A DNA stretch of 64,000 nt from positions 631,384-695,383 of the forward strand of contig CAWHHI010000011.1 of assembly GCA_963829055.1 (NCBI GenBank), in the 5' to 3' direction. This document shows positions 1,092-11,070 of the stretch, in pieces. The notes beneath the pieces were generated by a model. That model searched no databases. It worked only from the letters and a program-made list of their open reading frames with translations, and was not told the DNA's origin. The position numbers and the translations under genes are program-made. This stretch comes from an uncultured Gemmatimonadaceae bacterium. GTDB lineage: Bacteria; Gemmatimonadota; Gemmatimonadetes; Gemmatimonadales; Gemmatimonadaceae. Within the stretch, counting starts at the first letter, position 1, and the number at the start of each line of letters is the position of its first letter.

Positions 1092-2624
1092 CTACCGTGA
1101 TGACTGACGCAGCAGCCTCCCTGCTTCCACGACGATGTCCGGCACCGCATCCACGTCAGCCACCGACGTTCGGAAATTCACGATGCACGCCCGCAGCGCG
1201 AACACGCCGTCGATGACCGCGTTCGACAGGTAAATGGCGCCGCCCTCCTGCAATCGCGTCAGGAGCGTCGTGTTCAACTCGTTCAGATATTTCGTGCGCT
1301 CGTCAGGCGACAGCGACGGGGACAGGTCCCGCGGAACGTAGCGGAACGTCGTGATGCTCAGCCCGTGCGTCAGTGCCTCGAGCTCCGGGTGCGCCTCGAC
1401 CTTCTCGTACATACGCCGACTCAGCGCGATGTCATCGGCGATGAGCTTCGTGTAGCCCTCGCGGCCAACCTGCTTGAAGGCGAGCCACACCTTGAGCGCA
1501 CGGAAGCCGCGCGAGTTCTGCGGACCCAGCTCGTGGAAGTTGATCGCCGGGTCTTCGGCCACGTCGGGAAAATGGTAGTACGACGGCTGGTGCGAGAACG
1601 CCGCACGTAACGCGTTAGGGTCACGAACCAGCGCGCAACCCGCCTCGAGTGGCGCATAGAACCACTTGTGTGGGTCGACCGCCACCGAATCCGCATCGCC
1701 TAACGCCGCAAGCGTCGCCGGTGCGCCAGGCACTCGCGCAGCCGGCGCGCCGTACGCCCCGTCGACGTGGAACCACACGCGCTCCTCTCGACACAGCGTC
1801 GCGATGTCCGGCAGCGGGTCCACCGCGCCCGTCGCCACAGAGCCTCCTGTACCAATCACGAGGAACGGCAGGAACCCCGCGCGACGATCTTCGGCCATCC
1901 GCTCGCGCAGTCGGTCCATACGCATGCGCTGCTCGCTATCGACTTCGATCCACCGCACGGCATCGTTGCCGAGTCCGTAGAGCTCGACCGCTTTCTGGAT
2001 CCACGTGTGCGTCTCGGCCGATGTGTACACCGTGAGCTTCGCGCCGTCGCCTGCAACCATTCCCTTCGCTCGCAGGTCCCACCCGGCGCGCGTCGCGTAC
2101 GCCGTGCGTGCGGCGAGGAAGCAGACCATGTTCGCCATGTTCCCGCCGCTCACGAACAGCCCGCCACACGATGCCGGGAAGCCGAGGAACTCCGCCACCC
2201 ACCGCACTGCTTGTCGCTCGATCTCCGTCGCGCTGGGCGACAGCGACCACGCGCCGACGTTCGGGTTGACCGCGGCGGCCAACATGTCGGCGAGAATGCC
2301 GATCGGGGCTGCCGATGCCGTGATGTAGCCGAAGAAGCGCGGATGTCCGTTGAACGTCGAATTGTCGAACAACACGGACGCCGCGTCGTTCAACAGCTTC
2401 GCCGGATCGTCGCCGGTTTCAGGAAGGCGACCGTCCCCCAACAGCGCGCGGATCGCGCTCGGCGTGGTGTGAGGGGCGACCGGCCGATCGGAAAGCGACG
2501 CGAGCAGAGCGGCAATGCGATCGACGAGCGCGTGTCCGGCCGCGCGGAATTGCGCGGGGTCCATCTCCAATGACGCATCCCGCCGGTCGCTCACAGCGGC
2601 GACGTGGTCCTGCGTGGTGCTCAC
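1092..2624 (-). CDS. Group II PLP-dependent decarboxylase (aromatic amino acid/glutamate decarboxylase family)
   Basis: HPRFFGYI, SGGNMAN, HVDGAYG, DPHKW (PLP lysine) and RALKVW motifs. Confidence 0.92.
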   Translation of the reverse strand: MSTTQDHVAAVSDRRDASLEMDPAQFRAAGHALVDRIAALLASLSDRPVAPHTTPSAIRALLGDGRLPETGDDPAKLLNDAASVLFDNSTFNGHPRFFGYITASAAPIGILADMLAAAVNPNVGAWSLSPSATEIERQAVRWVAEFLGFPASCGGLFVSGGNMANMVCFLAARTAYATRAGWDLRAKGMVAGDGAKLTVYTSAETHTWIQKAVELYGLGNDAVRWIEVDSEQRMRMDRLRERMAEDRRAGFLPFLVIGTGGSVATGAVDPLPDIATLCREERVWFHVDGAYGAPAARVPGAPATLAALGDADSVAVDPHKWFYAPLEAGCALVRDPNALRAAFSHQPSYYHFPDVAEDPAINFHELGPQNSRGFRALKVWLAFKQVGREGYTKLIADDIALSRRMYEKVEAHPELEALTHGLSITTFRYVPRDLSPSLSPDERTKYLNELNTTLLTRLQEGGAIYLSNAVIDGVFALRACIVNFRTSVADVDAVPDIVVEAGRLLRQSSR

Positions 2625-2806
2625 GACGTCTCCTCCGTTGACGAAATTCCCAGCGGTCTCGCGGTCAGTCTACCGCCGCCGCCCACTGAACGATATAAGG
2701 TATGGCATCCGGCAACCCGTTTCTTGTACAAAGTGAACGCACGCGAGGAATTGAAGTCATGACCTGCCAGGTGCCAGTGGGTCGGGTATCGCTGCTCACG
2801 GCTGCC

Positions 2807-3757
2807 ATGTCGGAGCGTAGGCGCGCGTTGCGGACGGTCGCCCTGACGATCGGCATCGTCGCGTTCGCATCGGCGCCCGCGACTCACGCGTTAGGTGCGC
2901 AGCCGCCGCACCGTTCGATCCTCGCCGAGAAGATGCGCGCGGACCTGCGCCGTATCGCTGACGACACCCGAGGGGTAGTCGGCGCGCAGGTCATCGATCT
3001 CGCGACCGGCGATCGCATTGGCGTGAACGACACGCTGACGTTCCCGCAGGGCAGCGCGATCAAGATCCCGCTGCTGATCGAGCTGTACCGACAGGACGCG
3101 GTCGGTCAACTCAAGCTCTCGACGCGCGTGCCGGTTCGTCAGGCGGATCGTACTGGCGGCAGCGGTCTCCTCCTCAACCTTGGCGACGGCACGAGCGAGC
3201 TGTCACTCGGCGATCTCGCCATGTTCATGATCACCGTGTCCGACAACACGGCGACGAACATGCTCATCGACCGCGTGGGCATGGACAAGGTGAACGGGAC
3301 GATGCGCGAGCTCGGCGTGCCTCAGGTCAAGCTGCAGCGGAAGATGATTCGTCCGAAGGACAGCGCGGCGGGAAACGAGAACATCGCGACGCCAACCGGG
3401 GCGGCAACGATCATGGCGAAGATCGCGCGATGCGAGCTCCCGATGCCGAAGGAGCGGTGTGGTGAGCTGCGGAAGCTGCTCGAGATTCCGAAAGGCGGAC
3501 CGATCGAGGCGTCGGTCCCGGAAGGCGTGCGGGTCGCCTGGAAACCGGGGGACATCGAGGGCGTGAACACGGCATGGGGTCTCGTGGATCTTCCGGGCCG
3601 CCCGTATGTGGTAGTGGGGATGGTCAACTACAGCGACGCGAGCGACGCGGAGCGCGCGCTCAGGCGCATTGCCGACGCTGCCTACGGATACTTCCACGTC
3701 CTGGCGCGATCGACACCGTACGGGGCGCGAGTGCCGCTCGAGGTCATGCCGAAGTAG
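2807..3757 (+). CDS. Secreted serine hydrolase, class A beta-lactamase-like fold
   Basis: SAIK (SxxK), SDN and KPG motifs; signal peptide; start uncertain within ORF 2702..3757. Confidence 0.85.
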   Translation: MSERRRALRTVALTIGIVAFASAPATHALGAQPPHRSILAEKMRADLRRIADDTRGVVGAQVIDLATGDRIGVNDTLTFPQGSAIKIPLLIELYRQDAVGQLKLSTRVPVRQADRTGGSGLLLNLGDGTSELSLGDLAMFMITVSDNTATNMLIDRVGMDKVNGTMRELGVPQVKLQRKMIRPKDSAAGNENIATPTGAATIMAKIARCELPMPKERCGELRKLLEIPKGGPIEASVPEGVRVAWKPGDIEGVNTAWGLVDLPGRPYVVVGMVNYSDASDAERALRRIADAAYGYFHVLARSTPYGARVPLEVMPK

Positions 3758-3758
3758 C

Positions 3759-3899
3759 TGTCATTCCGAGCGGAGCGTCAGCGGAGTCGAGGAATCGCGA
3801 TCGTAGCGGTAGAGGGGCCCCTCTACCGGTAGGATCGCGATTCCTCGACTGCGCCGCTTCGCGGCTCCGCTCGGAATGACAGCCCGGCTCGGAATGACA
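3759..3899. repeat. REP/REPIN-like palindromic element, type A
   Basis: TGTCATTCCGAGCG...GAGGAATCGCGATC...TAGAGGGGCCCCTCTA...GATCGCGATTCCTCG...GCTCGGAATGACA, plus a duplicated right end. Confidence 0.9.
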
Positions 3900-3964
3900 G
3901 CCGGGCCAAACCTTGGTCCCCATTCGCCTGTCTCATGTGGCAGTCCACTCACGGAGACACCCGA

Positions 3965-4870
3965 ATGCTTTCCCGTTTCGCACCTGCGCTGGTCGCCGCG
4001 TGCGTGCTCGCTTCACCGCTCGCCGCCCAGAACCAACTCCAGGGCCGCGAGGGGAATCGGTTCACGTGGTCCGAGCGTGTGCCTGCCGGCCAATGGCTGC
4101 GCGTCTACGGAAACAATGGACGGATCACCGTCAGCGAAGCGACGGGCGATGCAGCCGAGGTCGTGGGAGAGAAGGACGTGCGACGCGGACGTCCCGAGGA
4201 CATCGCGTTCGAGGTCCGGCGGACGAGTGACGGCGTCACCATCTGCGCGATCATCGACGACGACACCGACTGCGATGACAGGGGCGTGCGCCATCGCGGC
4301 CGATGGAACGACGAGTCGAACGGGTTGCGCGTGCACTTCACCGTTCGCGTTCCGAAAGGCGTGAAGCTCGCCGTCGGATCGGGCAACGGCGATGTGGCGG
4401 TGACCGGCGCAACGGCAGACGTCCAGGCGTCGAGCGGCAACGGGAAGGTGCGCGTATCGGCCGGCGGGCCTGTGAGCGCCTCGAGCGGGAACGGTGATGT
4501 GCGCGTCGACCGCGCGGGCGGGCCAGTAAAGGCGTCGAGCGGCAACGGCAGCGTGTTCGTAGTCACCACCCGCGGACCCGTGAATGCGTCGAGCGGCAAC
4601 GGAGATGTGGAAGTCTCGATGGATGCGCTCGCCGACACGGCCGAGGACATGGAGCTGTCGAGCGGCAACGGCACGGTGACGGCCACGGTGCCATCGGACT
4701 TCGCTGGCGAGCTCGATGCGTCGACGGGCTCGGGGAAGTTCTACAGCGACTTCCCGCTCACGCTGCAGGGCCGCATCAACCCACACCGTGTCCATGCGAC
4801 GATCGGCCGTGGCGGCAGGCGGATCACGATGAGCTCCGGGAACGGCGACGTGGAGTTGAAGAAAAAATGA
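3965..4870 (+). CDS. DUF4097-like beta-strand repeat (putative adhesin) protein
   Basis: Signal peptide; repeated ASSGNGDV units; GGAG upstream of ATG 3965. Confidence 0.88.
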   Translation: MLSRFAPALVAACVLASPLAAQNQLQGREGNRFTWSERVPAGQWLRVYGNNGRITVSEATGDAAEVVGEKDVRRGRPEDIAFEVRRTSDGVTICAIIDDDTDCDDRGVRHRGRWNDESNGLRVHFTVRVPKGVKLAVGSGNGDVAVTGATADVQASSGNGKVRVSAGGPVSASSGNGDVRVDRAGGPVKASSGNGSVFVVTTRGPVNASSGNGDVEVSMDALADTAEDMELSSGNGTVTATVPSDFAGELDASTGSGKFYSDFPLTLQGRINPHRVHATIGRGGRRITMSSGNGDVELKKK

Positions 4871-4900
4871 GCTCGTGGATCATCGCGGATCGAGCGATAC

Positions 4901-5264
4901 GCATCATCGCGCCGCGGCCGGTGGGAACTACGATTGACGCGGATTGAACGGAAAACAGCCGGATACACCTTTGCATCGACGCTGGCTCTCGCCGGGCCTG
5001 AATGAAAGAGGAACGGCCGCTCGGGACGCAGGAGTCTCCCGAGCGGCCGTTCCCAAAGAATCCGGGCTCGTGGCGCGAGGGGCCGTCCCGAACGCGATCG
5101 ATCCTGCTTCTTCCGCGTCATCCGCGAAATCGCAGTTCCCACCGATCCGGCGCGATGATGCTCGAATGCAAAGCCGGATCCGGCAGTTTCGCAGTACCGA
5201 TCCGCACAATCGTAGTTCCCACCGGCCCGGCGCGATGGTGCGCGAATGCAAAGCCGGATCCGGC
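4901..5264. repeat. Complex intergenic hairpin and direct-repeat region between convergent genes
   Basis: 17-bp perfect stem 5010-5026/5037-5053; 57-bp direct repeats 5128-5184 and 5208-5264; inverted partial copy 4901-4935. Confidence 0.8.
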
Positions 5265-5267
5265 TGC

Positions 5268-7418
5268 CTATCGCCCCACAGAGATCGTCATTCCCGCATA
5301 GACGGTCCGCCCAGGCGAGGGCTCGAAGTAGCGGCCAGCCGCAGCATTCACCACGATCGACCCCGCATACGCGCGGTCGAACAGATTCGACACACCGAAC
5401 ACCGGCACCAGCGCCATCCCCGCAACCGTCACACGCCCACCGATCCGCGCGTTCGCCACCTCCCAACCACCCGCGCGCAGCGTGTTCGCGTCGTCCATGA
5501 ACATCCCGCCCGCTGTCTGTCCTTCCACCGTCCCGAACCAGCCGCGCCAGTTGTACGTCACGTAGCCTTGCAACTGCTGGTTAGGCACGCCCGGAATCGT
5601 GTTCCCACTGAAGTCGTTCGCGCCGACGGTGTAGTCCTCGAACGCGAAGTCCGAATAGCTGTACGACGCACCGATCGTCGTCGCGCCTAACGCCGATGCC
5701 AGGCCCAGCTCGCCGCCGCGCCGCCGCGTCGACCCCGCGTTCCGGAAGTACCGCCGCCCCGCCCCGCCCGGCACCTCGAATGGAATGAGCTCGTCCCTGA
5801 CGCGCGTCGCGAACAGCGCCGCGTCATAGCGCAGTCTACCGAACGCTACTCCTTTCACCCCCGCCTCGAACGTGGTCGCGTACTGCGGGTCGAGCGTCGG
5901 GTTGATCCCCGCGGAGCCATCGGGCTTGTTCGCGAGCTCCGTCGCCGTCGGCGTCTCGAACGCGGTCGAGAGGTTCGCGTACACGGAGTGCAGCGCGCCG
6001 ACGCGCGCGACGAGGCCGACCAGCGGGCTCACCGCGTGCAGCGTGCGCTCGCCCGAGTCGTCCGGATTCGTCGCCGTGATGAGGTGATCGCCGACCCGGA
6101 ACTGCACGTAGTCGGCGCGCACGCCTAACGTCAGACGGTAGCGGTCCGAGAATGCGATCTCGTCCCGCACGAACGGCCCGAGCCCCGAGACCCGCTCACG
6201 CTGGTCGAGCTGCACCACGCCGCGCTCACGCGAGACGACGGGACACGCCGCCGTCGGCTGCGTGAGCGGCGGCACGAAGTTGCAGTTCGCGAAGTTCTTG
6301 CGCTCGTCGTCCTGAAACTGCGCGTCCATGCCCGCACTCACACGATGGTCGAGCCCGAGGAAGCGAACCGGAACGGTCACGCGCGCGTTTGCACCGGACG
6401 TCGTGCGGTCGACATCCACGATCGCGAACGTGAGCGGATTGTCGAGCGTGCGCCAACCGAAGTGCGCCGCGGCGGACCACTCCACCCCGCTCGACGAGCG
6501 TCGGTTCGCGGTCAGGCCGAGCTGCGACTGCTGCACCGCCTTGCGCGTCGCCTTCCGGATCTGCGCCGGATCCGCCTGACGCGGATCACTCTTCATCTCG
6601 GCCGCCGTGAGCGCGCCCGGATTCTCCGCCGTCGGCGTGTCGTACCCGGTGTACGTGAGCGCGAGATCGCCGGCCTCGCCCGACAGCATCGCCCGCGCCG
6701 TCCCACTCGTGGATTGTTGCCGAGCGTAGAGGCGGTACCCGTCCTGGTCGGTGCGCGAGAGGTCACCCTGGTACTGAATCGCACCCGCCGTCCCACCGGC
6801 AGCGCCCGCCCAACGCTTCAGGCCATACGAACCGCCAGTCCCCGTCACACGACCCGCGATCGCGTCAGATGGCGGATCCGCCGTGCGAACCTCGACGACT
6901 CCGCCCGCCGCGTTTCCGTACAGAGAGCCCGCGCTCCCACGAATGACCTCGATGCTCCCAACCGACTCGAGATCGAGGTAGTCGATGGGCGTCTGCCCAT
7001 CGGGTAGCGTGAGCGGAATGCCGTCGCGCACCACCCGAACGCCGCGCACGCCGAACGCCGATCGCGCGCCGAAGCCTCGGATGGAGATGCGCGGGTCCTG
7101 CGTGGGGTTGCTCCGGTTGGCAACGGCGAGGCCCGGGATCGCCAGCAGCATCTCGTCGAACGAGACATGACGGAGAGACGGTCGGCCACTGTCCGGCACA
7201 ATCCGCGAGATCGCGTACGGGAGGTCGAGCGTCGGGCGCGCGGCGTCACGCGTGACGGTGACCTGCACGGGCGGCAGCGTCGACGGCCGCGGTCTGGGCG
7301 GCGTGGTGTCTTGCTGTGCGTCGAGGCGGTGCGTGATGCCGACACTCATCGACGCAACACACAGCGCGGTGATGTTGAGCCCCGTGAACCTTCGACCCGC
7401 GAACGTCTGTATCGGCAC
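5268..7418 (-). CDS. TonB-dependent receptor
   Basis: Plug motifs ISIRGFG, DGIP and IEVIRGSAGSLYGNAAGGVV; C-terminal NLFDRAY...PGRTVYAG; probable GTG start at 7418. Confidence 0.93.
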   Translation of the reverse strand: MPIQTFAGRRFTGLNITALCVASMSVGITHRLDAQQDTTPPRPRPSTLPPVQVTVTRDAARPTLDLPYAISRIVPDSGRPSLRHVSFDEMLLAIPGLAVANRSNPTQDPRISIRGFGARSAFGVRGVRVVRDGIPLTLPDGQTPIDYLDLESVGSIEVIRGSAGSLYGNAAGGVVEVRTADPPSDAIAGRVTGTGGSYGLKRWAGAAGGTAGAIQYQGDLSRTDQDGYRLYARQQSTSGTARAMLSGEAGDLALTYTGYDTPTAENPGALTAAEMKSDPRQADPAQIRKATRKAVQQSQLGLTANRRSSSGVEWSAAAHFGWRTLDNPLTFAIVDVDRTTSGANARVTVPVRFLGLDHRVSAGMDAQFQDDERKNFANCNFVPPLTQPTAACPVVSRERGVVQLDQRERVSGLGPFVRDEIAFSDRYRLTLGVRADYVQFRVGDHLITATNPDDSGERTLHAVSPLVGLVARVGALHSVYANLSTAFETPTATELANKPDGSAGINPTLDPQYATTFEAGVKGVAFGRLRYDAALFATRVRDELIPFEVPGGAGRRYFRNAGSTRRRGGELGLASALGATTIGASYSYSDFAFEDYTVGANDFSGNTIPGVPNQQLQGYVTYNWRGWFGTVEGQTAGGMFMDDANTLRAGGWEVANARIGGRVTVAGMALVPVFGVSNLFDRAYAGSIVVNAAAGRYFEPSPGRTVYAGMTISVGR

Positions 7419-7717
7419 GCGATGCCTTGATACTGGTGCAGTGGTATGTCCGCCGAGCACCGATTCCGAACGTTTCTCGACACGTGTTCGAATCGTGTTC
7501 AACGCGGGTTCGAGCGCCGGCGAAGCTGCAGGCGGTCTCGGACCCGTGCAACCCCTGTGCAACCCTGATGCTGGATTGCGGCGGCCGCGCAACTCGGGCT
7601 ACCCACAGTGTTCAGTGCGTTCGCCAGGCGCTACAGTATCGAAGTTGCCGTCGCTCACTTTCACCTGTCCGGCCGCGCGCAGCGTGGCAACGCCGGCCCG
7701 TACACGCGGAGAACTCG

Positions 7718-8026
7718 ATGACGAATCCTCGCCCACCACGGAAGCACGTGATCACGCACGAAGAAGCGGTCGCACAGCTGAGCCGCCGTCCGAAGGAGCT
7801 GAAAGAGCGAGGCGGTCACTTTCCTCGCGAAGCCATCGAGCAGATCCTCGCGCAGCCGGGTTGCGCCAGCATTCGCTTCTACTTCGGGACCAAGACAGAC
7901 GGTTCCCTGGCGGTCGTGATGGTCGGTATGGACGAGAACGAGAAAGACATGACCGCCGGCGTCATCATCGAGGATCACTATCCCTGCCCACCATTCTGCG
8001 ACGCGACGAGCAGCCTGATTCGGTAG
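7718..8026 (+). CDS. Small (102 aa) uncharacterised protein with a near-C-terminal PCPPFC motif
   Basis: GGAGA RBS at 7708-7712, ATG 7718; MTNPRPPRKHVITHEEA...ILAQPGCASIRFYFG...VMVGMD...IIEDHYPCPPFCDATSSLIR*. Confidence 0.85.
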   Translation: MTNPRPPRKHVITHEEAVAQLSRRPKELKERGGHFPREAIEQILAQPGCASIRFYFGTKTDGSLAVVMVGMDENEKDMTAGVIIEDHYPCPPFCDATSSLIR

Positions 8027-8027
8027 C

Positions 8028-8746
8028 ATGGGCAGTAGACTGCTCGCATTCGTTGTAGACGTGGCGCAGATCGCTTCCGCTGACGGCGCACACCGCTCAT
8101 CCTCCACGCTGCTGCGTTATCCCAGGCACTGCCGGTTCTCGCGGGGCTTCGTCATGGTCGGCGACTTCCGGCAGCGCGATTGCTGGACCATCGCGTGGTG
8201 CGTGGCGCTCATGGTCGGCGACGGCGCGCAGCTCTGGTGGCGAGGTGGCGAGCGGCACGAACAATCTCTGGCTTCAGGCAGCTGGCAACTCCGCTTCAGA
8301 ACGCGATCATGCTGTGGACGTTGTCGCTCTGGCAGCGTCACGCGGTGTCGCGACTCGCCTTTCGCATCGCAATTCCGCTGTTCCTCGTCACCGTCCTGGC
8401 GCTCATCCCGACCGTCAGCGACACGTCGGACGTTCGATACCGTCACCGACCGTTTCAGGCGTTGGTCCTTCTCGCGGGCGCGTTGTATACGCTCGTACGG
8501 AACGCGGCGAGCGAACCGGGCGACGTCACACGCCAGGACTGGTTCTGGATCACGCTCGGCACATCGCTGTACTTCGCGATGCGCGTCGCGCTACCGCCGT
8601 TCGCTGCGATCCTGATGAGCTCCCATGTGGAGCTCGTCCGGCTCGCTTACTTTGTCCAGGCGTGGGCCGACATCGCGGTCTTCCTGCTCATTGCCCGAGG
8701 GATCTGGTGTCCCCTTCCGCAGGCGCGTTCTGGTGGCTTTTTCTGA
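8028..8746 (+). CDS. Polytopic (about 7 TM) membrane protein, putative sensor subunit; frameshifted in this assembly
   Basis: Hydrophobic segments spread over three frames: LILHAAALSQALPVLAG, WTIAWCVALMV, NNLWL, IAIPLFLVTVLALI, FQALVLLAGALY, WFWITLGTSLYF, IAVFLLIARGIW; exact start uncertain (8028-8090). Confidence 0.7.
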
Positions 8747-9486
8747 TGGCGGTGCTCGCGCTCGTCGTGATCCTCACGGCGTTCGCGGCGGCGCTGATCA
8801 TCTATCAACGGCGGTTCCTCCAGATGCACCGGACGTTCGCCGACAACCTGCTCGCCGCGCACGAGGAGGAACGCGCGTGGGTCGCGCGTGAGGTCCACGA
8901 CGACGCGCTGCAACGCGTCGCGATGCTGGTCCACGAGCTCGATGAATGGCCGGGAATCCCCGCGGGGAATGCGTCGGCCAGCGCAACCGAACGCGTTGCC
9001 GCGCTGCGTGAAGAGATCGAGGATCTCGGTGTCATGCTGCGCCGAGTCGCGCATCGCATGCACCCCGCGCTCATCGATCACGCGGGGCTCGTTCCGGCGC
9101 TCCAATCGCTCGCGATGGACGTCACCAGATCGTCAGGGATTCGCGTGGAAGTGACGGACGAATTGCGGCTCGATGGCGCGTCGCCGCCAGCCGGCGAGCG
9201 CGCGCTACTCGTCTACCGCATCGCGCAGGAAGCACTGCGTAACGTCGTCAAGCACGCCGGCGTATCGCAGTGCGACATGCTCGTCGCGCTCTCTCCTGCC
9301 AGCATCGAGCTTCGCGTGACAGACCGCGGCAAAGGCTTTGTCGCCGACGACTCGGCCAAGGGACGTGGGCTGGGTCTCATCAGCATGGCGGAACGTGCGC
9401 GCCTTGCCGATGGCCGGTTGGAAGTGTGGTCACGACCGGGCGACGGCACGACCGTGCGAGCACTCATTCCTCGTCAGGCACTTTGA
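8707..9486 (+). CDS. HisKA_3 (NarX/UhpB-type) histidine kinase with a single N-terminal TM helix
   Basis: EEERAWVAREVHDD H-box, QEALRNVVKHA N-box, DRGKGF and GLGLISM G-boxes; GTG 8707 (GAGGG upstream) or ATG 8746 overlapping the upstream TGA. Confidence 0.92.
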   Translation: MSPSAGAFWWLFLMAVLALVVILTAFAAALIIYQRRFLQMHRTFADNLLAAHEEERAWVAREVHDDALQRVAMLVHELDEWPGIPAGNASASATERVAALREEIEDLGVMLRRVAHRMHPALIDHAGLVPALQSLAMDVTRSSGIRVEVTDELRLDGASPPAGERALLVYRIAQEALRNVVKHAGVSQCDMLVALSPASIELRVTDRGKGFVADDSAKGRGLGLISMAERARLADGRLEVWSRPGDGTTVRALIPRQAL

Positions 9487-9496
9487 CCGGATCAAC

Positions 9497-10135
9497 GTGA
9501 CTGTGCAGCGCCGTCCATCGGTCCTCATCGCCGACGATCACCCGCTCGTGAGCCACGGGCTCCGCGAGCTCCTGCGGTCCACACACACAGTCGTGGGAAC
9601 GGTCGGTGACGGCCGAGAAGTGCACGACGCGGTGGAGCGGACGAAGCCCGATGTGCTGCTGCTGGATCTCTCCATGCCGCATCGCAATGGACTGGACCTG
9701 ATCCCGGAGCTCGTGGCAGCGTTTCCCTCGCTTCGTATCCTTATTGTAACAATGCACCTCGACCGCACGCTCGCGGATCTCGCGCTGCAGTCCGGCGCGC
9801 ATGGTTTCATTCCCAAGGGAGCGACGGCGGAGGAATTGAACGGCGCCATTCATGACGTGTTGAGGGGCGAACGGTATATATCGCCGAAGATTCCGCGTCG
9901 CAGCTTCCGAGACGGGGCGGCCCTCGAGGACCCGTCCCTCGATCGTTTGACGCCTCGTCAGCGCCAGATCCTGGATTTGATCGGTCAAGGCAAGAGCAGC
10001 GCTCAGATCGCCGAAGCGCTAAGCGTGAGTCCGCGTACGATTGAATTCCATCGCGCGCAGATCCGGAAAACTCTTGGCATATCGAACGAGATGGGTTTAC
10101 TTCGGTACGCCATCATGCTTGGGACAAGGGATTAG
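9497..10135 (+). CDS. NarL/FixJ-family response regulator (REC + LuxR HTH)
   Basis: VLIADDHPLV, LLDLSMP, GFIPK, LTPRQRQIL...IAEALSVSPRTIEFHR. Confidence 0.95.
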   Translation: MTVQRRPSVLIADDHPLVSHGLRELLRSTHTVVGTVGDGREVHDAVERTKPDVLLLDLSMPHRNGLDLIPELVAAFPSLRILIVTMHLDRTLADLALQSGAHGFIPKGATAEELNGAIHDVLRGERYISPKIPRRSFRDGAALEDPSLDRLTPRQRQILDLIGQGKSSAQIAEALSVSPRTIEFHRAQIRKTLGISNEMGLLRYAIMLGTRD

Positions 10136-10238: not shown

Positions 10239-11070
10239 ATGAGTCGCCTCTCTCTGTACGTGACCGCCCCGCCGTTCATGCATGTGCGACGGCTTGGAGA
10301 CGGTAGACCGCCCCTCGGAGCCATTCTTGCTCGCTGACGTGGCCGAGCGCCCGGCCACGTCGGAAGAGCTCAAAGAGTTGTTCGCGCTCGCGCCCTGGTG
10401 TCCGGTGTGCGTGCTGCTGCGCTCCACTGCCGAACGCCGACGGATTCCTCGGTCACCGCGGATGTGTTCCGTCAGCTCACTCGTTGGTGGTGGCGGCGCG
10501 GCATCCATCCTCGCTGCTGTTCGGGAGCGACCGCGTCCTGCACCGATGGAGATGGCTGAGTGGCTCGCCGATCGCGCGCGAACGCCCGGTTTGCGCGCTC
10601 CGCTCGCGACGCTGTTCGGCCGCGCCATCTCCGGCATCTCGCATTCGGGACTTGGTTCTACCTGGTCGGACACCCCGGTCTCCGCGCTCGGGAATTGGCC
10701 GGGGACTACGTGGCAGGAAGTCGCGCGGCTTGCCGACCTTGCCGCCAACCGCGAGGCGATGGGTCGCCTGCTCGGGCGCCGCAATCCGCAGGGAGTGCAG
10801 GCGGTGCATGCGATGGAGGAATTCCTCGGCGCCACTGAAGAGGAGTTCCGTGAGCGCGCCGGTTGGGAATGGGTGTTGGAGGCAGCGGTGCGGCGCTCCC
10901 GCGAGCAGAGTCTCGAGATCCTCGCGTCGGCGCTGGGCACGTCTCCGCTCGGCTCCGCCCGCGTCGGTCAAGCGGCAGATACGCCTCGTGTTCCTTCCGG
11001 CGTCACACCCGAGTGGCCTCGCGCCGCGCAGTTGGCCGACGCTCCGCTCCGGGCCGCCGCGGGCAGATAG
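10239..11070 (+). CDS. Hypothetical protein (PWCPVC and GWEWVLEAA motifs), frameshift near 10325
   Basis: ATG 10239 gives MSRLSLYVTAPPF...GAIL, which joins ORF 10282..11070 after a single indel. Confidence 0.55.

Follow-up and report, generated by a model that had tools for sequence, protein, structure and literature searches.

A candidate three-part membrane sensor comprising a CPPxC protein, a seven-helix protein and a sensor-less kinase in Gemmatimonadota and Bacteroidota

The 64,000-nucleotide stretch of an uncultured Gemmatimonadaceae genome analysed here (the window) carries a cassette of four genes. On balance, we take it to encode a hitherto undescribed membrane sensor of three parts that passes its signal to a NarL-type response regulator. 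Sensor-less two-component kinases need a partner that defines their stimulus, and to our knowledge few such partners have been recognized. The cassette joins a kinase of this kind to two nameless families, a small protein ending in a CPPxC motif and a seven-helix (7TM) membrane protein, neither of which has a Pfam or NCBIfam model or a solved relative, and both of which are abundant in soil Gemmatimonadota and Bacteroidota. The preliminary description had proposed an undescribed signalling system, and this stands, since the linkage and the PCPPxC motif are conserved and no characterised function was found for either family.

Organization and conservation of the cassette

The genes are co-directional and tightly packed, and their coordinates agree with the spacing reported in the preliminary description (1 nt, an overlap, and 10 nt). 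Positions are those of the window.

7718..8026, + strand: small gene (ORF and translation), 102 aa, with the motifs QPGC...RFYFG...VMVGMD...PCPPFC; member of a large unnamed family
8028..8746, + strand: gene for the seven-helix membrane protein, frame-broken in the assembly (three-frame translation, DNA alignments to loci L002/L003 and L050-L054, and contigs of 4 runs)
8707..9486, + strand: histidine kinase with one N-terminal TM helix, a QRR juxtamembrane motif, and HisKA_3-like DHp and HATPase_c domains
9497..10135, + strand: NarL/FixJ-type response regulator, REC and GerE HTH, GTG start
10239..11070, + strand: possible fifth co-directional gene, function unassigned, frame-shifted (tblastn and frame comparison)

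The 102-residue product ends IIEDHYPCPPFCDATSSLIR. Its stop codon (TAG, 8024-8026) is separated by 1 nt from the ATG of the membrane gene at 8028, the frame of which terminates with a TGA (8744-8746) that shares a single nucleotide with the kinase ATG at 8746 (TGATG). An alternative kinase start, GTG at 8707, would extend this to a 40-nt overlap, and a WW motif upstream of the kinase ATG is kept in frame among relatives. The kinase ends at 9486, 10 nt before the GTG of the regulator at 9497. Of the four genes only that for the membrane protein is broken; those for the small protein, the kinase and the regulator are each intact. A scan of the locus for sigma-70 promoters returned no sites, that for terminators gave only chance-level results, and TRF revealed no repeats over 4600-5500.

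The neighbours of the cassette are a divergently oriented gene for a TonB-dependent receptor, which is a first candidate target of the regulator in this clade, an unknown ORF and a gene for a beta-lactamase-family hydrolase. The ORF at 10239..11070, possibly a fifth cassette gene, was detected by tblastn at seven other loci (L002, L003, L024, L050-L052 and L056); its conservation reaches no further than the nearer Gemmatimonadota relatives. In the window an additional T at about 10324 shifts its frame, and searches of Pfam, NCBIfam and ESM Atlas gave no lead to its function.

The kinase matches HATPase_c (PF02518) at 44.1 bits (cut-off 26.4) and HisKA_3 (PF07730) at 22.6 bits (E 1.6e-4), just below the cut-off of 24; its relative at L014 scores 44.9 bits against the latter model. 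An EVHDD box is present, and the core aligns to the MctS, UhpB and NarX models, all far below their whole-protein cut-offs. Ahead of the DHp domain there is one TM helix only and no space for a sensor domain, as had been described. The regulator, likewise correctly named as NarL-type, exceeds the cut-offs for Response_reg (PF00072; 88.8 bits) and GerE (PF00196; 56.7 bits), and is 86-88% identical to its counterparts at L002 and L003.

Linkage was examined in 60 small-gene units from 58 loci, made up of 48 genome loci and 10 of 14 metagenome loci; L060-L063 were left out as they gave no family match. By record title the genome loci represent Gemmatimonadota (21), Bacteroidota (23), Ignavibacteria (1), Zixibacteria (1) and unclassified sources (2). 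A same-strand 7TM gene follows 56 of the 57 units with at least 900 nt of downstream sequence, a count that is partly circular, since 40 of these loci had supplied the 7TM profile. It is backed independently by tblastn with the window's own membrane piece, by ORF inspection and by an hhalign comparison of the 7TM proteins of two phyla. Where the downstream sequence extends to at least 2600 nt, 46 of 47 units possess the 7TM gene, 38 also a window-like kinase, and 36 the regulator as well. The conserved linkage to a membrane protein, a one-TM kinase and a regulator, which the preliminary description had predicted, is thus borne out. No exporter, protease or processing gene recurs beside the cassette among the loci examined, in keeping with the apparent lack of a dedicated exporter or protease in the window's own cassette; the recurring parts are limited to the small gene, the 7TM gene, a TM-led transducer and the regulator.

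A TM-led ORF follows 52 of 60 7TM genes, its helix beginning between -60 and +126 nt from the 7TM end. The two genes never share a reading frame and frequently overlap, by about 37-40 nt, an arrangement seen in three phyla. What comes after the helix varies: PAS-HisKA_3 at L014, a PAS-HisKA-HATPase-REC hybrid kinase at L023, and at L022 and L025 a 980-residue 5xPAS-LuxR protein with no kinase. The output domain is therefore exchanged while the input parts stay.

The small protein and its seven-helix neighbour

The N-terminus of the 102-residue protein is not hydrophobic, nor is that of the upstream in-frame ORF starting at 7427, which is congruent with the earlier assignment of a protein without a signal peptide. 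Its family comprises 2213 cluster representatives at E<=1e-3 and 782 at E<=1e-10. The relatives anticipated in Bacteroidota exist, and are named as hypothetical proteins. The 61 close homologues measure 100-105 residues and all lack a leader. Whereas the entire domain of about 95 residues is conserved and aligns across phyla, its most conserved part is the C-terminal CPPxC, in agreement with the proposed conservation of this motif: in 103 sequences C90 and P91 each occur 102 times, and P92 and C94 each 101 times. C49 is found in 90 and H10 in 92 of the 103. At least 200 residues are present in 63 of the best 149 representatives, most of these with two matched domain stretches, and no match exceeds 290 residues among the best 150 of 2213. 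Tandem pairs of small genes occur at L002, L003 and L058. A Chitinophagaceae subgroup has small proteins without CPPxC and yet retains the linkage, so the cysteines cannot be needed throughout the family.

An N-terminal signal peptide or anchor was recognized in 43 of the best 149 representatives, including the clear Sec-type leaders of the L011 and L023 proteins, and these domains should be periplasmic; the other 106, that of the window included, are leaderless and should be cytoplasmic. The location is inconsistent across the family in this respect, which speaks against the sensor model: a single invariant docking surface of the 7TM protein could not accommodate the two forms unless the leaderless ones are exported otherwise. 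C49 is absent from 10 of 36 leader-bearing as against 3 of 67 leaderless members, a difference that is suggestive only, as related sequences are not independent. The conserved G32-G33 was considered as a double-glycine leader and ruled out, since the same pair comes after the Sec leader in exported members and is hence part of the fold. A co-variation between CPPxC and a Cys at the end of 7TM helix 7 was seen and dropped; it reflects largely one clade (Chitinophagaceae) and has exceptions at L019, L043, L045, L047 and L049. Near-identical strains differ at 3 of 102 residues of the small protein and by silent changes in 25 codons, a pattern of purifying and not diversifying selection.

An AlphaFold2 model (pLDDT 90.5, pTM 0.81) predicts a compact folded domain. 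Foldseek gave a best match of E 0.18 (LOV/PAS, TM 0.17) and VIA a best Z of 2.9, with CopG at 2.2; neither search thus yielded a structural counterpart in the PDB, which does not in itself prove a new fold. The PDB sequence profiles yielded no matches, Pfam and NCBIfam none either, and the ESM Atlas matches are confined to "hypothetical protein" clusters.

The 7TM orthologue at L050 was modeled with comparable confidence (pLDDT 90.8, pTM 0.85), and models as a GPCR/rhodopsin-like bundle. All 50 VIA neighbours listed are GPCRs, GPCR-like designs or microbial rhodopsins, the best at Z 13.4 with an rmsd of 4.1 over 199 residues, where values up to about 13 may express just the common helical arrangement; the best Foldseek match is MAR rhodopsin (E 0.01, TM 0.44-0.47). 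The positive-inside rule places the N-terminus outside and the C-terminus inside. Alignment of the 7TM proteins of the two main phyla by hhalign (probability 97.5%, E 4.9e-12, 203 columns) indicates that they are homologous. The helix-7 lysine required for retinal is not conserved in the Gemmatimonadota proteins; only the Chitinophagaceae subgroup conserves a Lys, within an NIxKN motif, and this Lys is aligned to a Val of the L050 protein.

No Pfam family reached its cut-off with 11 intact 7TM proteins (chance-level rows at E 0.009-0.043), and no NCBIfam model did so with five, where L026 gave two chance-level rows at E about 0.002-0.003. The profiles for 7TMR-DISM_7TM, 5TMR_LYT, HisKA_7TM and MASE were not matched, although a remote kinship below profile sensitivity is possible, and the PDB sequence profiles gave three chance-level matches (E 0.13-0.3). 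Longer, fused forms of 479-2000 residues were lacking among 8000 scored candidates, a weak negative. Prediction of a complex between the 7TM and small proteins, run without controls, scored 0.01 against a mark of 0.32, which speaks neither for nor against contact.

Pfam, NCBIfam, the PDB sequences and the source names, which read "hypothetical", give no characterised function for either family. In the literature outside subscription journals, motif strings retrieved only conopeptide and unrelated papers, and searches for 7TM/HisKA_3 systems in Bacteroidetes and Gemmatimonadetes retrieved nothing on the small or 7TM family. To that extent the statement in the preliminary description that the small proteins lack a functional annotation was accurate.

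Frame breaks in the membrane gene

There is no intact membrane ORF across 8028-8746. The gene is covered by ORF pieces in three frames (8028-8615, 8180-8746 and 8245-9486), and its reading passes through frames 0, 1, 2, 0, 1 and 2, with the NNLW and FW..G..Y motifs in different frames. The protein of about seven TM helices in the preliminary description is therefore obtained only by reading across the breaks; such a protein exists, being encoded by an intact ORF of 235-241 residues in all eight close metagenome relatives, but the window's own copy of the gene is cut by indels. Comparison with relatives 96-97% identical in DNA locates extra single bases at about 8069, 8084, 8180, 8247 and 8286, and a compensated +1/-1 pair at about 8424 and 8446. 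These are absent from L050-L057 and, where the sites are covered, from contigs of 4 runs of 4 studies.

We consider that these breaks are probably consensus errors in a strain-variable stretch. Were they real, the 7TM gene would be a recent pseudogene and the small protein, kinase and regulator would be orphaned, which we regard as unlikely. That reading draws on the clustering of seven indels inside 380 nt of one gene, against none in the TonB receptor, small, kinase and regulator genes (compared with L050), and on the absence of the window's own version of the stretch from public sequencing runs: none holds half or more of its words, the best share being 0.29, and two RNA runs share 0.05-0.06. 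Yet the same stretch still bears the marks of purifying selection. In the indel-corrected reading, 45 of the 65 substitutions relative to L050 fall at codon position 3, and 42 codon changes are synonymous and 18 non-synonymous with no stop, which points to an error of assembly or to decay that is very recent. Insertions account for six of the seven indels, an error-like +1 insertion also breaks the next gene at 10324, and the indels fall exactly where co-occurring strains differ by about 10%. The assembly consists of 20 contigs spanning 7.8 Mb and is only 85.9% complete, whereas a genome of the same family (7.5 Mb in 4 contigs) reaches 100%. This pattern would fit a long-read assembly with indel errors. 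As the 7TM gene of the window is broken, the system may not work in the source organism; for annotation, the lesson is that clustered assembly indels can conceal a gene.

Proposed mechanism, rival readings and known systems

The proposed receptor subunit would be the seven-helix protein, with its N-terminus outside and its C-terminus inside. The transducer, encoded separately and carrying a single TM helix followed by a Q(R/K)(R/K) juxtamembrane motif, would here be the sensor-less HisKA_3-type kinase; the 7TM subunit presumably hands its state to it through helix-helix contact in the membrane, and the kinase would then phosphorylate the regulator encoded 10 nt downstream. The small protein would be a stably folded, obligate partner of the sensor. 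The CPPxC motif, which hardly varies, is likely to be its functional centre, joined in most members by C49 and H10. This CxxxC could form a disulfide or act as a metal/redox switch: a disulfide where the protein is exported, a thiol or metal switch where it is leaderless, as in the window.

The small protein has the character of a folded accessory subunit rather than of a pheromone precursor: conservation peaks at its CPPxC end, forms with tandem domains are common, and a signal peptide is missing from most members. The preliminary description had taken it for the cognate ligand or ligand precursor, released and possibly read by the 7TM subunit as a CPPFC disulfide ring in a manner resembling quorum sensing. 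Tight linkage to a receptor-like protein, the leaders or anchors of the 43 representatives, which place some members outside the cytoplasm, and the near invariance of CxxxC are all compatible with this, and such a ring is chemically feasible, a cone-snail peptide being reported to carry a PCPPFC single-disulfide ring (PMC9409646). Nevertheless, we find the ligand reading very improbable. Conservation extends over the whole domain, for which a fold is predicted; variation is lowest in its C-terminal motif, the reverse of what pheromone precursors display; 63 of the best 149 representatives reach 200 residues or more, most of them with two matched domain stretches; 106 of the 149 are without a leader, as are all the close homologues; no protease or exporter gene is conserved alongside; and the strain comparison points to purifying selection.

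The small and 7TM proteins might instead be regulated cargo, for instance a membrane transporter or enzyme and its soluble partner, co-transcribed with their regulators. Operons often combine a two-component system with its target genes, the 7TM fold match is generic, and the contacts among the parts of the proposed sensor are themselves deduced. This is nonetheless hard to reconcile with the gene after the 7TM gene, which always opens with a lone TM helix irrespective of the output domains that follow, or with a kinase possessing no other input domain. The out-of-frame overlap of the two genes in three phyla fits a fixed partnership better than cargo, and neither protein matches a transporter or enzyme family in the profile and PDB sequence searches. 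We judge cargo improbable.

A bolder formulation of the sensor model, advanced tentatively and rather on the doubtful side, is that a free GPCR-like 7TM receptor in at least four phyla docks helix-to-helix on interchangeable single-pass transducers (histidine kinase, hybrid kinase or PAS-LuxR), together with a confidently modelled small protein without a detectable structural neighbour in the PDB, the CPPxC loop of which is a redox or metal switch. If true, this would represent a modular receptor/transducer/co-receptor architecture new to two-component signalling. A free-standing bacterial 7TM receptor with exchangeable transducers, whether kinase or one-component transcription factor, offers a testable case, and cultured carriers (Hymenobacter frigidus, locus L030, and a Mucilaginibacter genome) make genetics feasible.

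In Agr and ComQXPA a small gene lies directly upstream of those for a membrane receptor, kinase and regulator. The cassette resembles them in that its small gene directly precedes the membrane, kinase and regulator genes, and in that extra strain divergence is limited to the 3' part of the small gene and the membrane gene. It differs from them in having no processing or export gene, in a small protein that is a folded conserved domain, and in divergence that is mostly synonymous. The variable mature part typical of a pheromone precursor is lacking, each CPPxC position being kept in 101-102 of 103 sequences. As in 7TMR-DISM and 5TMR-LYT/BtsS, a polytopic membrane input would feed kinases; those inputs are fused to their output in one polypeptide, whereas the 7TM protein of the cassette is always encoded by a separate gene in another frame.

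In the sensory rhodopsin II-HtrII pair, a seven-helix receptor is encoded beside a separate TM transducer, to which it is understood to signal sideways within the membrane. The cassette likewise sets a seven-helix protein next to a separate TM-bearing transducer (52 of 60 7TM genes), and the listed structural neighbours of the 7TM model are GPCRs and microbial rhodopsins. Unlike in sensory rhodopsin, however, a retinal-binding lysine is not conserved in TM7 of the window's clade, and the 7TM protein shows no sequence relation to it; unlike HtrII, with its two TM helices, the transducer has one and is itself a histidine kinase, PAS-LuxR protein or hybrid kinase; and the cassette has a third, small subunit. 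In SaePQRS, LiaFSR and BceRS-AB a kinase with a minimal or no sensor domain takes its input from partner proteins. The operon logic is shared, with a small protein, a membrane protein, a minimal-sensor kinase and a regulator (all four in 36 of 47 loci). The small and 7TM proteins, by contrast, match no Pfam or NCBIfam family above cut-off, those of SaeP, SaeQ and LiaF included; a few gave chance-level rows below it. The cassette further differs from these systems in that its membrane partner models as a seven-helix GPCR-like bundle, its phyla are Gemmatimonadota and Bacteroidota, and its output is exchangeable.

Gene layout and the broken membrane gene

Four closely packed genes lie on the + strand at window positions 7718–10135:

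7718–8026, +, small gene; 102-aa hydrophilic product with the C-terminal end IIEDHYPCPPFCDATSSLIR
8028–8746, +, seven-helix (7TM) membrane gene, broken in frame
from ATG 8746 or GTG 8707, +, kinase of 246 or 259 aa, respectively, with one TM helix and a QRR juxtamembrane motif
from GTG 9497, 10 nt past the kinase stop, +, regulator; Response_reg (88.8 bits) and GerE (56.7 bits)

The in-frame stretch 5′ of the small gene contains no hydrophobic segment back to 7427, and the small protein therefore lacks a signal peptide. Its TAG stop is followed by one base and then by an ATG at 8028; TGA at 8744–8746 closes the membrane reading frame, its final A being also the first base of the kinase ATG at 8746. 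An alternative GTG in the kinase frame at 8707 would add the residues VSPSAGAFWWLFL; since the WW motif within these is kept in frame among relatives, this GTG may be the true start, with a 40-nt overlap with the membrane gene. Because the WW motif and the 7TM tail (...RSGG) are read from the same bases (8707–8746), one may be conserved as a consequence of the other. Within the kinase, the HisKA_3-like region scores 22.6 bits (E 1.6e-4), slightly below the Pfam cut-off of 24, and HATPase_c scores 44.1 bits. NCBIfam models cover only its cytoplasmic core (e.g., MctS, profile positions 204–450 of 457), and the kinase has no sensor domain.

The four-gene arrangement of the preliminary description was borne out only partly: the genes are present, but the membrane gene is frame-broken here, with no ORF spanning 8028–8746 and a coding signal that jumps among all three frames. 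Relative to the metagenome contigs L050, L051, and L052 (95.9–97.2% identity over 3.2–6.5 kb), the window carries extra single bases at approximately 8069, 8084, 8180, 8247, and 8286, and a +1/−1 pair at approximately 8424 and 8446; the TonB-receptor, small-protein, kinase, and regulator genes contain no indels against these contigs. All eight close metagenome relatives covering the gene (L050–L057) possess one intact ORF of 235–241 aa, beginning 0–1 nt after the small-gene stop. The extra bases are absent from Logan contigs (four runs, four studies) at every site covered.

Divergence from L050 is approximately 10% across ~7800–8600, where the indels fall, and 1–2% in the flanks; in two runs the flanking contigs match the window exactly, and the middle contig has 45–49 differences. 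L051 likewise differs from the window by ~10% in this stretch and 1–2% in the flanks, and L052 is a mosaic (~3% up to 8200, ~9% beyond). The variable stretch spans the last (3′) two-thirds of the small gene, runs on through most of the 7TM gene, and ends before the kinase. With the window read in the relatives' frame, codon position 3 of the membrane gene takes 45 of 65 substitutions, and its codon changes (42 synonymous, 18 non-synonymous, no stops) still look to be under selection; the small gene has 25 synonymous and three non-synonymous changes. That the changes are mostly synonymous suggests that the stretch is an old allele moved by recombination. The assembly (7.8 Mb, 20 contigs) has a completeness of just 85.9%, and the window's own version of the stretch was found in no public sequencing run searched. 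Consensus errors in a strain-variable part of a long-read assembly are the most likely cause of the breaks; the less probable alternative is real and very recent decay of the membrane gene.

Linkage across phyla

Sixty-one close homologues of the small protein were found, almost all of 100–105 aa, and its profile matched 2213 of 1.84 billion cluster representatives at E ≤ 1e-3 (782 at E ≤ 1e-10). Pattern scans yielded 48 genome loci, assigned to phylum by record title (Gemmatimonadota 21, Bacteroidota 23, Ignavibacteria 1, Zixibacteria 1, unclassified 2), and 14 metagenome loci, from which L060–L063 were left out as weak matches that the family profile did not match. The resulting 58 loci hold 60 small-gene units. 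Where the sequence extends 900 nt or more downstream of the small gene (57 units), a membrane-protein homologue comes next on the same strand in 56. Of the 47 units that extend 2600 nt or more, the membrane gene is present in 46, together with a window-like kinase in 38 and with both kinase and regulator in 36; these counts are partly circular, the membrane-protein profile having been derived from 40 of the same loci. Support independent of them comes from three sources: a tblastn search that used the frame-2 piece of the window itself, ORF inspection, and a profile–profile comparison of the Gemmatimonadota and Bacteroidota membrane proteins (probability 97.5%, E 4.9e-12, 203 columns). The predicted linkage holds. 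Within the phylum the small protein is patchy: of the 301 genomes sampled, 39 carry it, and of the 128 genera, 21.

For neither the membrane nor the small protein did Pfam-A, NCBIfam, or PDB sequence families give a match above cut-off, and both are "hypothetical protein" in RefSeq, UniProt, and JGI (e.g., WP_188561827.1 and WP_188561828.1 of Hymenobacter frigidus). Conserved linkage of two proteins without a named family supports the earlier proposal of an undescribed signalling cassette.

Predicted structures and the small protein's likely role

The L050 membrane protein, which shares 92% identity with the corrected window reading, was modeled with seven long helices and a short N-terminal helix (pLDDT 90.8, pTM 0.85). 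The 50 matches listed by VIA consist entirely of GPCRs, microbial rhodopsins, and designed GPCR-like folds, with a highest Z of 13.4 (rmsd 4.1, 199 residues), a score that can reflect a common helical arrangement; the best Foldseek match is MAR rhodopsin (E 0.01). Membrane proteins of the window's clade possess no helix-7 lysine.

The small-protein model is a compact α/β domain (pLDDT 90.5, pTM 0.81) with no convincing PDB neighbour (Foldseek E ≥ 0.18, VIA Z ≤ 2.9). Conservation over 103 single-domain members is 102 for C90, P91, and Y55, 101 for P92, C94, R53, and G70, 98 for Q46, 92 for H10, and 90 for C49; by these counts the C-terminal CPPxC is the protein's most conserved feature and not a variable signal. 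Among the best 149 of the 2213 representatives, 63 are at least 200 aa long, mostly with two matched domain stretches. A hydrophobic leader or anchor stands at the N-terminus of 43, in several cases with a clear AxA-type cleavage site, and is absent from the remaining 106. Two tandem small genes occur in L002, L003, and L058, and no recurrent exporter or protease gene lies beside the cassette. The preliminary description had proposed that the small protein is a ligand or ligand precursor, a mechanism that is not supported: the conserved CPPxC end, the frequent two-domain forms, the tandem genes, the distribution of leaders, and the missing exporter and protease speak against a pheromone precursor and for a stable accessory subunit. 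Its side of the membrane may differ between lineages, the window's leaderless protein being cytoplasmic by default; we infer a disulfide in exported forms, and a thiol or metal switch via H10, C49, C90, and C94 in leaderless ones.

In Chitinophagaceae-type loci (L026–L028, L031–L036, L038–L042, L044) the small proteins lack CPPxC and have Trp-rich tails, and helix 7 of the 7TM proteins has no terminal Cys but a conserved Lys (NIxKN); linkage to kinase and regulator is retained. A second 7TM-kinase-regulator set, apparently without its own small-protein gene, lies a few kb upstream in several Chitinophagaceae loci (L032, L042, L044, and upstream parts of L033–L035 and L040–L042).

Transducers, neighbouring features, and known systems

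The input of the cassette is constant and its output exchangeable. In 52 of 60 cases the membrane gene is succeeded by a transducer gene whose product starts with a single TM helix, mostly with Q(R/K)(R/K) after it; the remainder are contig ends or loci with the kinase encoded elsewhere. A HisKA_3-type kinase is commonest; the transducer is PAS-HisKA_3 in L014 and a PAS-HisKA-HATPase-REC hybrid in L023. In L022 (Zixibacteria, 2479–5421) and L025 (Ignavibacteria, 6947–9889) it is a 980-aa one-component regulator with one TM helix, five PAS domains, and a LuxR HTH, without kinase or separate receiver. Membrane and transducer genes are always in different frames, with out-of-frame overlaps of ~37–40 nt in three phyla:

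window, 8707–8746
L014, 1485–1521
L022, 2479–2515
L025, 6947–6983

By the positive-inside rule, counted by hand on the L050 and L011 sequences rather than with a prediction tool, the membrane protein would have its C-terminus inside and N-terminus outside, and the transducer helix would likewise run from outside to inside. On this topology the two are excluded as halves of one split polypeptide. No longer fused forms of the membrane protein were found in the search, a weak negative.

Divergent from the cassette lies a TonB-dependent receptor gene (Plug and barrel; 5268–7592, −), a cassette neighbour only in nearer relatives (L002, L003, L050, L054, L056–L058) which makes it a candidate regulator target in this clade. 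Between the receptor and small genes, in the intergenic region of the expected promoter, the window lacks 10 nt that L050 and L052 have (7483–7493). Downstream of the receptor gene is a short repeated element (4916–5266), also present in L050, with two direct 65-nt copies at 5120–5184 and 5200–5264, which are 89% alike and lie at an 80-nt spacing, and with inverted counterparts at 4916–4998. The co-directional ORF of unknown function 3′ of the regulator (10239–11070) is conserved in L002, L003, L024, L050–L052, and L056, gave no Pfam, NCBIfam, or Atlas lead, and is split in the window by an extra T at ~10324 (ATTCTT vs. ATCTT in relatives).

The kinases of SaePQRS, LiaFSR, and BceRS-AB depend on auxiliary proteins, and in sensory rhodopsin II-HtrII a separately encoded membrane transducer receives the signal from a seven-helix receptor. 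In its logic the cassette resembles both arrangements, but by sequence it belongs to none of them, and the features that define Agr/Com-type pheromone cassettes are missing from it. This comparison points to a two-component system with accessory sensor subunits, made of two undescribed protein families.
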